NCBI RefSeq assembly: GCF_003334255.1
Contig: NZ_QOWU01000110.1
Reading direction: 5' to 3' (one strand)
From: Escherichia coli
GTDB taxonomy: Bacteria; Pseudomonadota; Gammaproteobacteria; Enterobacterales; Enterobacteriaceae
DNA length: 4,159 nt
The notes under the pieces were generated by a model. That model was given only the letters and a program-made list of their open reading frames with translations. It was not told the origin of the DNA and ran no database searches. Numbering within the stretch: position 1 is the first letter of the stretch; each line of letters opens with the position of its first letter. The position numbers and the translations under genes are program-made. Below, piece by piece: positions 1 through 4,159 of the stretch.

Positions 1-2061
1 GCGGAACAGATGATCCGGCTGTTTTTCTGGTGTGTTGACGGCAGCAAAAAGCGGTGCCTCACGGGTTTTCAGATGAAACTCCATAAGTTCCGGCGCAGGT
101 GATATGTGGCTGTCTGCATCGTGATTTACGGCAACACCATACCCTGCATACCGTAACCCCTTATCGGTCAGTGCACTGATGACCAGCTGGCTGTTATCGG
201 CTGAGGGAACGGCAAACGCGGGATACAGCGTACCATTAAGCCGGACAACACCGCCCAGAGAGTCATCCACGCCCATGACCAGCAAAAGCTGAAGCTGGCG
301 GGTTTCCCGGTCGACAGAACTCATTACCGGCATCAGCGTCGGTAGCAGACGTCCCTGCGTAAAATCCACCTTCCTTGCTGCCAGTGATGGCATGGCTGGC
401 TGGCGGTCTTCTCCAAGACAGAAAGACTCCGGCCATGTCTTCGGCTGGCGGAGATTGCGGGTATATTGCGGCCATGTCTGGCAAACCTGCGTCAGAAGTT
501 GCTCAAAGGTCGCAGAGGAATAAACACGTTGCAGTGGTGGATGTTGACCGATTTCGCTTCGGTCACAGATATAACCACTCCTGTCACGCATTAAATCAAC
601 ACGCTCAAAGATTCTGGTGCGGTATTTCTCCAGCTCGTTCCCCCAGAGCGTGTATTCTCCGTTCCGGTTGTGAAGCAGAAGGTAACAGGTCATTTCCCCG
701 TTACCAGGCATGGGGGCCTCGCCATACCCCGTAACGACTGCGCTCAGTACCCCTGAATCCATAACGGCATTGTCATTTTTCCTGAGCTGTTCCGCTCGTC
801 GCTCCGCGCGACTACGTTCTGTATCCTCCTGCTCCTTCCGGCGCAATTCCTCTTCACGTTTAAGCAACTGGACTCTGAGAGCTGCAAGGCCGGATGCCCC
901 CCACTGCTGCCACTGTTTTTCAAATGCCGTCTGACTCGCGGGAATGTCCTGTTTCTCCACCTTCCGGTAATGCTGTCGCAATTTTTCCATTTGCTGGCTC
1001 AGCGACTGGATTTTTCCCTGTTCGCTACGGTATTCCGGTGCCGCCCATTGCATCAGGGGAATACGGGAAAAACCGGACGAAAACGGCGATGATTTTTTCA
1101 GGCTGGCAGCATGGCTCATCGCTTCCTTTCGTTCGGTGTTCAGCTCTTCCCAGCGTCTGCGCGTCGCCTGCATATCTGCCATCATCGACATGGCATTACT
1201 GGTGAGTTTCCATGCCGCATTACTGTCCTTCGGCAACGCTTCGATGATGTCACGTAGTGTGTACGAAGTTGCGTTGTCAGGAAGCACGATATTCAGAAGG
1301 TCAGCCACACGGCGGGCAGGCTCTGTCAGCCCGCTGTTTCTGAGTTCGGTACGGGAAATCTGTATTTCCAGGTTAAGTCTGTTAATCAGACGATTCTGTT
1401 CGCCGCGTTCTGTTTCGATACCGCGTGTTTCCATCGCACAGGCAGACTTTCCGAGGTGAATACCAGGCGTTTTCTCAAGCCCCTGTCGCTCGTATGAACG
1501 ATGGTCTATCTCTTCCTGATAACCGGCGTTCGCCAGTGCCCTGTTCGCATGGTCAGCCCATGATGCACGCCACGTCTCGGCATGTGTCCGGTCGTTCCAG
1601 TCCCTGACCTTTCCACCGAATCCAGCAGGTCCGACAGCTCTCGTGGTCAGCATGATGTGCGCATGGGGATTTGTTTTATCCATGTGATGGAACGCCACAT
1701 CAGCAATCATGCCCTGACTGACAAAGTTTTCTCTGACAAAGGCGAGAACGGTTTCCCGTGCGGCATCCTGCGGTAGTTCGCGGGGGATGGCGAGTTCAAT
1801 TTCCCGCGCAAGTTGTGAGTTCTTCCGGCGTTCGGCCTTCTCAACGGCATTCCAGAGTTCGGCACGGTTCGTACACCAGGCAGGGGCTGTCGCGGGAGTC
1901 AGAATCACAGCTTCAGCCACACCGCTTTTGCGGGTGTAGTCGTGAGTCAGTCCGGTACGCTCATCAAGCATCAGTGAACCGGAACGATAGGCAGCAGAAG
2001 CAACGGCGCTGTAGCCGCTGTTTCTGGAGATGATTTTCATGCTGAGATGATAAATCGCCAT
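1..2061 (-). CDS. mobA: MOBQ-family conjugative relaxase MobA, N-terminal 687 codons; the ORF runs off the window start and continues at 4082..3984 on the circle
   Basis: Hand translation of the minus strand from ATG at 2061..2059 gives MAIYHLSMKIISRNSGYSAVASAAYRSGSLMLDERTGLTHDYTRKSGV, with Tyr at residue 25 as in RSF1010 MobA. Further in are a histidine-rich motif HHMDKTNPHAHIMLTTR and WADHANRALANAGYQEEIDHRSYERQGLEKTPGIHLG, which closely parallels the RSF1010 MobA segment WADHANRALERAGHDARIDHRTLEAQGIERLPGVHLG (quoted from memory). I checked every in-frame plus-strand triplet from 1 to 2061 and found no TTA, CTA or TCA, so there is no stop on the minus strand. A second in-frame ATG at 2040 is less likely because the MAIYHLS start is the conserved family N-terminus. 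The SD is weak (AAGG/ACGG 5-14 nt upstream). Confidence 0.9.
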   Translation of the reverse strand, partial: MAIYHLSMKIISRNSGYSAVASAAYRSGSLMLDERTGLTHDYTRKSGVAEAVILTPATAPAWCTNRAELWNAVEKAERRKNSQLAREIELAIPRELPQDAARETVLAFVRENFVSQGMIADVAFHHMDKTNPHAHIMLTTRAVGPAGFGGKVRDWNDRTHAETWRASWADHANRALANAGYQEEIDHRSYERQGLEKTPGIHLGKSACAMETRGIETERGEQNRLINRLNLEIQISRTELRNSGLTEPARRVADLLNIVLPDNATSYTLRDIIEALPKDSNAAWKLTSNAMSMMADMQATRRRWEELNTERKEAMSHAASLKKSSPFSSGFSRIPLMQWAAPEYRSEQGKIQSLSQQMEKLRQHYRKVEKQDIPASQTAFEKQWQQWGASGLAALRVQLLKREEELRRKEQEDTERSRAERRAEQLRKNDNAVMDSGVLSAVVTGYGEAPMPGNGEMTCYLLLHNRNGEYTLWGNELEKYRTRIFERVDLMRDRSGYICDRSEIGQHPPLQRVYSSATFEQLLTQVCQTWPQYTRNLRQPKTWPESFCLGEDRQPAMPSLAARKVDFTQGRLLPTLMPVMSSVDRETRQLQLLLVMGVDDSLGGVVRLNGTLYPAFAVPSADNSQLVISALTDKGLRYAGYGVAVNHDADSHISPAPELMEFHLKTREAPLFAAVNTPEKQPDHLFR

Positions 2062-2104
2062 TTCTGCCGTAATGCCTTTTTGTGGTTTTCTTTCAGCCCC
2101 GCAG

Positions 2105-2152
2105 GGCGCACACAATCGAAACGGAGTGGAGATTGTATAAGTGCGCACTTCG
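2105..2152. other. oriT: Putative oriT: imperfect inverted repeat followed by palindromic nic-like core AAGTGCGCACTT
   Basis: Arms gcgcac-acaatc (2106..2117) and gattgtataagtgcgc (2131..2146) form an inverted repeat with a 4-nt bulge. The 12-bp perfect palindrome aagtgcgcactt (2139..2150) contains AAGTGCG, resembling the RSF1010 nic region GGTAAGTGCG/CCCT. It lies between divergent mobA and mobC, as in RSF1010. Confidence 0.6.
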
Positions 2153-2203
2153 TGATTTTCCGTGCATTATGCCAGCTCAGTTTTTAAACTACCAGTGACG
2201 CGC

Positions 2204-2209
2204 TAAAAT
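2204..2209 (+). promoter_or_regulatory. Candidate -10 hexamer (TAAAAT) for mobC; the -35 is not clear
   Basis: TAAAAT sits 30 nt upstream of the mobC ATG. Only weak -35 candidates (TTTTTA, TTAAAC) are present. Divergent mobA/mobC promoters are expected to overlap oriT by analogy with RSF1010. Confidence 0.3.
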
Positions 2210-2239
2210 GCGATTTTTCATCGCGCACGGAGTTACATC

Positions 2240-2494
2240 ATGAGCAGAACACTCGAACAGAAGATTGCTGATGCTGAGGCCAGATTACAGCGCCTGAAGG
2301 CGAAGAGCAGGAGTCTGGACACAGCGCAGAAGGTCATTGTGGGTGCAGCATTGCTGGCAAAGGTCAGAAAGCCGGAGGAGGTGCAGTTGCGTGCCTGGTT
2401 ACTCCAGTTCCTGAAGGCAGAGGTGACACGACAGGCTGATGTGACGCGCATACTGCCGCTGATTAACGAGCTGGAAGCGCTGCCAGGACAGTGA
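2240..2494 (+). CDS. mobC: Mobilization accessory protein MobC (RSF1010-type), 84 aa
   Basis: ATG at 2240 is preceded by GGAG (2229..2232) with a 7-nt spacer. The product MSRTLEQKIADAEARLQRLKAKSRSLDTAQKVIVGAALLAKV... resembles RSF1010 MobC (...RLAKLEEQRARINAEIQRVRAREQ...RKVLVGAMILAKV..., from memory). It is divergent from mobA across the oriT. Confidence 0.8.
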   Translation: MSRTLEQKIADAEARLQRLKAKSRSLDTAQKVIVGAALLAKVRKPEEVQLRAWLLQFLKAEVTRQADVTRILPLINELEALPGQ

Positions 2495-2734
2495 TTGTAT
2501 CGTCCGCTCGCCGCAGTCCCAGCGACCGAGCGTTAGCGAGCGAGTGGGCGAGGAAGCGGAAGTGAATCCGTCGCCTGATTGAGCACATACGCACGGTTTT
2601 TCGGGAGGTGATATGCGCTGAACCCGCATGAATACTGGATTTCCACAGGGTTGGAGGGGGTGTATTCGGAACTTGCAATTCTGCTTTTTTGCAACGCATT
2701 GTTTTTATTGGTTTTTTGTTTTCAGCACTCCAAG

Positions 2735-2743
2735 TTATCCACA
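2735..2743 (+). promoter_or_regulatory. DnaA box, perfect consensus TTATCCACA
   Basis: Exact 9-mer TTATCCACA, located about 100 bp upstream of the iterons and next to the AT-rich repeats. This is the standard layout of iteron-type oriV. Confidence 0.6.
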
Positions 2744-3728: not shown

Positions 3729-3747
3729 AATCGATTTTAAGGCACCT

Positions 3748-3773
3748 AAAACGCTCCCTGCTGCGTTTTTTTT
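3748..3773 (+). terminator. Putative rho-independent terminator of repA
   Basis: Hairpin with arms aaaacgc (3748..3754) and gcgtttt (3763..3769) around an 8-nt loop, running into a T8 tract (3766..3773), 20 nt after the repA stop. The stem has only 3 GC pairs, so it is weak. Confidence 0.4.
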
Positions 3774-3833
3774 GTGTTAGTAGTGCGAAGGTACTATTGA
3801 AGTGAAAAATTGCGTCAAAATCGCTCTAATGCA

Positions 3834-3862
3834 GCGAAAAAAGAACCCCCATTTTTTGGGGG
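3834..3862 (-). terminator. Putative rho-independent terminator of mobA
   Basis: Hairpin with arms ccccca (3846..3851) and tggggg (3857..3862) around a ttttt loop. On the minus strand it is followed by ttcttttttcgc (complement of 3834..3845). It lies about 120 nt downstream of the mobA stop. Confidence 0.45.
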
Positions 3863-3920
3863 CGGAAAAACAAAACTATGCTTGCATTATGTGTGTGCTT
3901 CTTGCATTCATCCCTGTCGA

Positions 3921-3950
3921 TGAACATCGAAGAACATCGACGAACATAAC
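3921..3950. repeat. Three tandem 10-bp repeats (tGAACATCGA, aGAACATCGA, cGAACATaac) in the mobA 3' untranslated region
   Basis: Read directly; the 10-bp period matches one helical turn. Related GAACA/TGTTC motifs recur at 3954..3959 (atgtta) and 3975..3980 (tgttca). Confidence 0.7.
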
Positions 3951-3983
3951 ACGATGTTAAACAAAACAAAATATTGTTCACAT

Positions 3984-4159
3984 TCACTGTGACCAACCGC
4001 GATCATGTCTCCTCTCGGTGGCGTGTGTTCGTGCATCTTCCTCGCGCCGCCATTCGTCCCAGGTACGATTAAAACCCAGCGAGCGGAACAGATGATCCGG
4101 CTGTTTTTCTGGTGTGTTGACGGCAGCAAAAAGCGGTGCCTCACGGGTTTTCAGATGAA
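3984..4159 (-). CDS. mobA: C-terminal end of the same mobA relaxase ORF (last 32 codons plus TGA stop at 3986..3984); bases 4083-4159 duplicate codons already counted in 1..77
   Basis: The frame is continuous across the circular junction (window base 4083 = base 1). Reading the minus strand from 4082 gives SLGFNRTWDEWRREEDARTHATERRHDRGWSQ then stop. Total ORF is 2160 nt, 719 aa. Confidence 0.8.
   Translation of the reverse strand, partial: HLKTREAPLFAAVNTPEKQPDHLFRSLGFNRTWDEWRREEDARTHATERRHDRGWSQ
4083..4159. repeat. Terminal redundancy: exact copy of window bases 1..77, reflecting circular topology rather than a biological repeat
   Basis: Base-for-base identity of 4083..4159 with 1..77, and the mobA reading frame continues across the junction without a stop. 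Confidence 0.95.

Follow-up and report, generated by a model that had tools for sequence, protein, structure and literature searches.

The stretch of Escherichia coli DNA analyzed here, hereafter the window, comprises 4159 nucleotides of contig NZ_QOWU01000110.1 (RefSeq assembly GCF_003334255.1). It carries the replication and mobilization genes of a small plasmid, and its last 77 bases repeat its first 77; the plasmid and this terminal redundancy are the subject of the present text. The supported genes are rep, mobA and mobC only, and the other short open reading frames (ORFs) were indistinguishable from chance. The genes and the two copies of the redundancy lie as follows.

Positions 1 to 77, no strand assigned: first copy of the terminal redundancy, inside mobA and belonging to the 4082-base-pair (bp) unit.
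Positions 4083 to 4159, no strand assigned: second copy of the terminal redundancy, a duplicate of 1-77 and most likely an assembly overlap.
Positions 1 to 2061, minus strand: codons 1-687 of mobA (mobQ), with an ATG at 2061 and no stop; the relaxase domain is at the high-coordinate end.
Positions 3984 to 4082, minus strand: codons 688-719 of mobA (mobQ) and the stop (32 codons plus stop), joining base 1 on the circle.
Positions 2240 to 2494, plus strand: mobC, an ORF for an 84-residue relaxase accessory protein, given as MobC in RefSeq (WP_000091745.1).
Positions 3027 to 3728, plus strand: rep, encoding a 233-residue initiator of the Rep_3 family, with the Pfam domains Rep3_N (expectation value E = 1e-35) and Rep3_C (E = 1e-19).

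A preliminary description of this DNA had stated that bases 4083-4159 are identical to bases 1-77, and self-comparison bore this out, with 77 of 77 bases matching. The longest exact overlap of the window ends is 77 bases, the random expectation for an end identity of that length is about 4e-47, and the content of the window amounts to 1.02 units. No piece of the overlap of 20 nucleotides or more was found elsewhere in the 4082-bp unit, and the second-longest direct repeat in the window is the 30-nucleotide iteron family of the replication origin. The 77-mer occurs once each in the finished monomers NZ_LR890408.1, pSE11-6 and pIGWZ12; therefore, the plasmid does not naturally contain it as a repeat. 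In the trimer record NZ_CP196027.1, it is found three times, one per copy.

The gene that crosses the junction gives the same picture. On the circle, a minus-strand frame is open from 2148, runs through base 1 into 4082 and ends at the stop at 3984. The joined product is a 719-residue MobA/MobQ, identical to WP_001029343.1 as annotated in NZ_LR890408.1, and it is restored on the circle only; the earlier claim that the mobA frame is kept across the junction was thus correct. The ORF list of the linear window omits this gene because its frame continues past the left end. The junction itself falls between mobA codons 687 and 688, approximately 1.3 kilobases (kb) by the shorter arc from the origin of vegetative replication (oriV, about 2735-2938). 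The preliminary description had also spoken of a replicon read past its "own origin". This wording holds for an arbitrary linearisation point inside mobA but not for oriV.

Finished records of the same element agree with this circle. In PLSDB, 600 records match the 4082-bp unit, 62 of them at 99% identity or more, and each of the best 29 matches is exactly 4082 bp long; the topology, read directly for NZ_LR890408.1, pSE11-6 and pIGWZ12, is circular in all three. NZ_LR890408.1 (E. coli MSB1_7C plasmid 4; circular, 4082 bp) differs from the rotated unit by two single-nucleotide polymorphisms (SNPs; 3821 and 3833), both in the spacer between rep and mobA. Plasmid pSE11-6 (NC_011411 / AP009246, from E. 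coli SE11; circular, 4082 bp) differs by five SNPs, at 2455 (mobC), 2892 (iteron 3), 3101 (rep), and 3762 and 3821 (spacer); it was finished in 2008 and reported as a 4082-bp cryptic plasmid (Oshima 2008, PMC2608844). Both records carry the same three annotated genes (mobQ/mobA, mobC and rep) with an identical MobA product, and the window differs from them in its start point and in the untrimmed 77 bp. Plasmid pE2022_4 (KT693143), the MOBQ41 prototype and the base of pRC1 (Garcillán-Barcia 2019, PMC6856555), matches the entire 4082 bp at 99.9% identity. Plasmid pIGWZ12 (NC_010885, 4072 bp), the replication prototype of the group, shows the same gene order at 94.6% identity, and its Rep is approximately 90% identical to that of the window. 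Length, genes and sequence all fit the finished circular records, which supports the 4082-bp circular plasmid that had been proposed for this DNA.

These records also bear on the idea that the molecule is linear, either phage-like or a linear plasmid, and that the 77 bp are its true terminal direct repeat. The contig resembles such a molecule in a formal sense only, through its direct terminal repeats. However, the 77 bp lie inside the mobA coding sequence and occur only once in each finished circular record that carries them. Moreover, the three identified genes, rep, mobA and mobC, serve plasmid replication and mobilization, and none of them is phage-like (the other short ORFs were outside this search). 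An Rfam scan gave no family, and the near-identical circular records contradict a linear form. We consider the probability of a linear molecule to be close to nil. Overall, we are highly confident that the window represents one full 4082-bp circular plasmid of the pSE11-6 / pE2022_4 / pIGWZ12 type (MOBQ41), linearised inside mobA, most likely with an untrimmed k = 77 overlap. Within the window, we found nothing that contradicts this assignment.

The length of the redundancy would be accounted for by the assembly process. Most probably, an assembler working with k-mers (a de Bruijn graph) output the circular path and left the overlap of k = 77 untrimmed, which would have repeated the first 77 bases at the end. 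A value of 77 is one of the default final k settings of SPAdes. Identical 77-bp contig ends have been ascribed to the SPAdes algorithm for circularly permuted genomes (bioRxiv 10.1101/2022.06.14.493971), and identical first and last 77 bp were taken as a sign of circularity in another assembly (PMC8767329). Additionally, SPAdes has been described as creating contig-end overlaps that need removal and that are trimmed by Unicycler (PMC5481147). Because 77 is a typical final k-mer of SPAdes-type assemblers and identical 77-bp ends are a by-product of SPAdes, the redundancy is most likely technical rather than biological. The same artefact was observed in a close relative, NZ_LT795116.1 (1-4239), which is listed as "linear" with an untrimmed overlap of 165 bp and a true unit of 4074 bp, and in which mobA is annotated as two partial proteins.

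Multimers of the plasmid offer a different explanation of the 77 bases, in which the window is an excerpt of an actual head-to-tail multimer (a dimer, a trimer or a long-read concatemer) and the redundancy is the start of a second copy. Multimeric records do exist, including an exact dimer (NZ_CP035481.1, 8166 bp), two approximate trimers (NZ_CP148571.1, 12124 bp; NZ_CP196027.1, 11978 bp) and metagenome scaffolds of approximately 11 kb with two to three tandem copies. The absence of a detectable cer/Xer multimer-resolution site points in the same direction: in a scan for cer or dif arms with a 6-8-bp spacer, the best candidate had 7 mismatches in 22 bases, which is the level of shuffled sequences, although a very divergent site could escape such a scan. 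This result agrees with the published account, in which cer-like sites are reported in the MOBQ42 sister group only (PMC6856555). No resolvase or partition gene was found in the window plasmid either. However, a cut concatemer would stop anywhere, whereas an exact and mismatch-free 77 is a standard assembler k-mer, as expected from a graph cycle, and the window holds just over one unit. Furthermore, de Bruijn assembly collapses monomers and multimers to one cycle, which leaves the 4082-bp unit unchanged. We therefore regard excision from a multimer as very improbable. That the redundancy reflects real multimers, with a plasmid lacking cer that is regularly dimeric or trimeric in vivo yet fully stable, is in our view unlikely; if it were true, the route to multimer control would be left unexplained. 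The deposited "complete" multimers and scaffolds may be either real multimers or long-read assembly artefacts. In NZ_CP196027.1, one of the approximately three copies lacks the segment corresponding to window 2723-2987, which contains the AT-rich region and the iterons.

The distribution of the plasmid among genomes bears on a further alternative, namely, that the plasmid sits integrated or cointegrated in a larger replicon, in slightly over one tandem copy, with foreign DNA on its flanks. A relative is present in 568 of 5426 complete E. coli genomes (about 10%), and 736 of its 740 places in these genomes are on plasmids. The Rep protein is indexed in 20081 public-assembly blocks. Since the longest Rep-carrying contig measures 2-5 kb in 18121 of them, the free element of approximately 4 kb is overwhelmingly the usual form. 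Integration or cointegration is nevertheless documented by the remaining 4 of the 740 places, which are chromosomal, by a fragment with IS26-like flanks and a truncated mobA in a 108-kb plasmid, by a cointegrate of approximately 10.8 kb with a colicin MOBQ42 plasmid in at least 20 samples, and by one permuted full unit at the very start of a 3.87-megabase (Mb) chromosome contig (GCA_050198555.1 JBLEUG010000001.1, 1-4100). Such contexts, however, make up less than 1% of occurrences. The window contains zero non-plasmid bases, both of its ends lie in the same gene and in register, and a single integrated copy would not yield an exact 77-bp end duplication. An integrated source for the window is thus extremely unlikely.

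Several points weigh against the assignment of the window to a free circular plasmid with an untrimmed overlap. The cause of the overlap (k = 77) was inferred from the overlap length, and the window has no power to tell monomers from multimers in the cell. In addition, rare contexts in which the plasmid is not free exist, as observed for the cointegrates, the IS26-flanked fragment and the unit at the start of the 3.87-Mb contig.

The transfer module of the plasmid consists of mobA, mobC and the region between them, which contains the origin of transfer (oriT).

Positions 2062 to 2239, no strand assigned: oriT, the mobA-mobC intergenic region of 178 bp, filling the gap between the mobA ATG at 2061 (minus strand) and the mobC ATG at 2240 (plus strand).
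Positions 2112 to 2149, plus strand: oriT core, with the arms ACAATC (2112-2117) and GATTGT (2131-2136) and then TAAGTGCGCACT (2138-2149), which resembles a nick core.

MobA scored 262.6 bits against the NCBIfam MobQ equivalog NF041496 (cut-off 200), and its residues 18-213 matched Pfam MobA_MobL with E = 1e-70. All six predicted catalytic residues (Y25, E87, E89, H125, H133 and H135) are present in MobA, as in PMC6856555. In the C-terminal 500 residues (~215-719; window 1-1300 and 3984-4082), no significant Pfam domain was detected; for this part of MobA, just a low similarity to SogL primases is mentioned in PMC6856555. The mobC and mobA genes diverge around the 178-bp oriT, as in MOBQ41. 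MobC had no match in Pfam or NCBIfam, and its name rests on the RefSeq annotation and on PMC6856555, in which mobC was dispensable yet enhanced mobilization.

In MOBQ4 plasmids, a cloned 178-bp fragment was demonstrated by experiment to act as the oriT (PMC6856555). Because its length exactly equals the published 178 bp, we read the region 2062-2239 as oriT. The conservation of oriT and of the replication origin was assessed in an alignment of the window with seven relatives (eight plasmids), and the nick core is invariant in all eight. In pMG828-2, the hairpin arms read ACAAAC and GTTTGT, a compensatory double change next to an unchanged nick core. The core of the window, TAAGTGCGCACT, is one mismatch away from TAAGTGCGCCCT, the nick core of RSF1010/R1162, and the nick would be near 2145/2146 on the plus strand. 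The MobA-oriT system of RSF1010/R1162 (MOBQ1) has the same relaxase class with equivalent catalytic residues, and the RSF1010 oriT follows the same design, a hairpin and then the core TAAGTGCGC; the replication system of RSF1010 is unrelated to that of the window.

In the proposed mechanism, the MobA relaxase, aided by MobC, would nick the 178-bp oriT between the mob genes, and the single strand would then leave the cell by way of the mating apparatus that a co-resident conjugative plasmid supplies. Mobilization and the preference for oriT in cis were shown experimentally for the 99.9%-identical pE2022_4 backbone (PMC6856555), in a reporter-gene derivative that is not exactly the molecule analyzed here. 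That backbone showed 100% retention over 80 generations and was mobilized best by MPFI helper plasmids; MOBQ4 relaxases prefer oriT in cis, whereas the RSF1010 relaxase is efficient in trans (PMC6856555). Because of the 99.9% identity, the published properties of pE2022_4 (Rep_3, the 178-bp oriT, stability, mobilization by MPFI plasmids and a cis-acting relaxase) very probably apply to the window plasmid as well.

The replication module contains rep and, upstream of it, the following elements of oriV.

Positions 2735 to 2743, plus strand: TTATCCACA, a perfect DnaA box on the outer margin of oriV, conserved or one base off in 8 relatives.
Positions 2758 to 2785, plus strand: AT-rich region with two 14-bp direct repeats, each with a GATC site, kept in 7 of 8 relatives.
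Positions 2845 to 2863, 2866 to 2884, 2889 to 2907 and 2910 to 2928, plus strand: four 19-bp iterons, predicted to bind Rep.
Positions 2930 to 2938, plus strand: ATATTCACA, similar to a DnaA box and lying between the iterons and rep, with one mismatch to the consensus.

The window rep has the length and position of the rep coding sequence WP_001281397.1 of NZ_LR890408.1, whose two SNPs fall outside rep. The initiator is of the Rep_3 type (PF01051), not of the ColE2 type, as in MOBQ41. An Rfam scan to E = 1 revealed neither ColE1 RNAI/RNAII nor any known antisense or regulatory RNA, the only hit being a sub-threshold microRNA model. We also considered a ColE1-like plasmid class and rejected it, given that no RNAII/RNAI match was obtained and that the replicon is Rep_3.

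At one mismatch or fewer, the window has three DnaA boxes (one perfect and two with one mismatch), two of which flank the origin; four DnaA boxes are reported for pIGWZ12 (PMC6856555). At the position of 2930-2938, the pF437-7 box fits the consensus TTATNCACA if a one-base alignment gap is set on the left. According to work on pIGWZ12 cited in PMC6856555, iterons, an AT-rich region and DnaA boxes make up its origin, which is located upstream of rep, and the plasmid undergoes theta replication at approximately 15 copies. By analogy with the published pIGWZ12 origin, the AT-rich region at 2758-2785 is likely the DNA-unwinding element. In the window plasmid, the Rep_3 initiator would bind the four iterons beside the AT-rich stretch flanked by DnaA boxes, leading to theta replication; we infer this course from homology and from the published work on pIGWZ12.

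The four iterons occupy the same positions across the aligned relatives, and several of these plasmids, such as pIGWZ12 and pF437-7, carry one variant in all four. The window has a mixed set: the 5′ half reads GG(T/C)AATATG in iterons 1, 2 and 4, and iteron 3 has the pIGWZ12-type GGTGGAGGA; the latter 5′ half is found in all four iterons of pIGWZ12 but in iteron 3 only of the window. The most divergent aligned segments are the rep promoter (per-column identity of 0.65) and rep (0.88), while most of the mob genes and oriT are at 0.95 or above. Similarly, pF18S017 encodes a MobA identical to that of the window together with a Rep that is only 84% identical. This combination suggests a modular exchange of replicon specificity. 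The pattern of conservation and divergence in the alignment fits the published origin of pIGWZ12, whose iterons are the incompatibility determinants (PMC6856555).

The MOBQ42 colicin plasmids (ColE9-J type) were compared as well. Their mobA-oriT-mobC module is close to that of the window, which matches it at 84-86% over ~1349-2475, and between the published oriT sequences 10 of 178 positions are different (PMC6856555). However, MOBQ42 plasmids replicate from a ColE2-type replicon and carry a colicin operon and a cer-like site, whereas the window has Rep_3, no colicin genes and no detectable cer/Xer site. All MOBQ41 features that can be tested from sequence were found in the window.

No cargo gene, including any resistance or colicin gene, was identified in the window plasmid. 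The plasmid group is called cryptic in published work, where its selective benefit is described as still unknown (PMC6856555). A fourth, "hypothetical" gene is listed for the MOBQ41 backbone (PMC6856555). We did not locate it in the window; the small ORFs are nearly all intact in 8 relatives, which are too similar to discriminate among them.

Two further noncoding regions complete the plasmid.

Positions 3729 to 3983, no strand assigned: convergent spacer between rep and mobA, with terminator-like hairpins at 3748-3769 (plus strand) and 3863-3845 (minus strand) and a 10-bp triple repeat at 3922-3950.
Positions 2504 to 2562 (core of 2504-2594), no strand assigned: intergenic stretch resembling n'-pas (ssiA), CCGCTCGCCGCAG...GCGAGGAAGCGGAAG, noted as a lead only.

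In a scan with promoter and terminator consensus sequences, the counts were not above those of shuffled sequences, and the two spacer hairpins fit the gene ends in position, which gives weak support to terminators there. The triple repeat at 3922-3950 consists of three direct repeats with a 10-bp period (GAACATCGA, GAACATCGA and GAACATAAC) just before the mobA stop. At least 5000 enterobacterial plasmids, diverse in size and replicon type, share the stretch at 2504-2594 at 80-93% identity, and it is unannotated in nearly all of 40 sampled rows. Its core, 2504-2562, aligns to a pBR322/pUC segment that we take to be the ColE1 n'-pas/ssiA site for assembly of the PriA primosome. The single-strand fold of this stretch (2495-2610, both strands) was no better than those of shuffled sequences. 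The role of the ColE1 n'-pas/ssiA primosome assembly site has been described previously (PMC3167613).

Earlier publications cover the plasmid, its circularity and its mechanism, and the redundancy is an ordinary by-product of assembly, so that nothing new is added on these points. The value of the finding is practical rather than conceptual. In E. coli, few small plasmids are as common as this one. If the redundancy is left untrimmed, the plasmid ends up recorded as 4159 bp and possibly deposited as linear, and mobA, its largest gene, is split or truncated, which affects gene counts, typing and plasmid clustering. We recommend removing the final 77 bases and annotating the genes on the circular unit.

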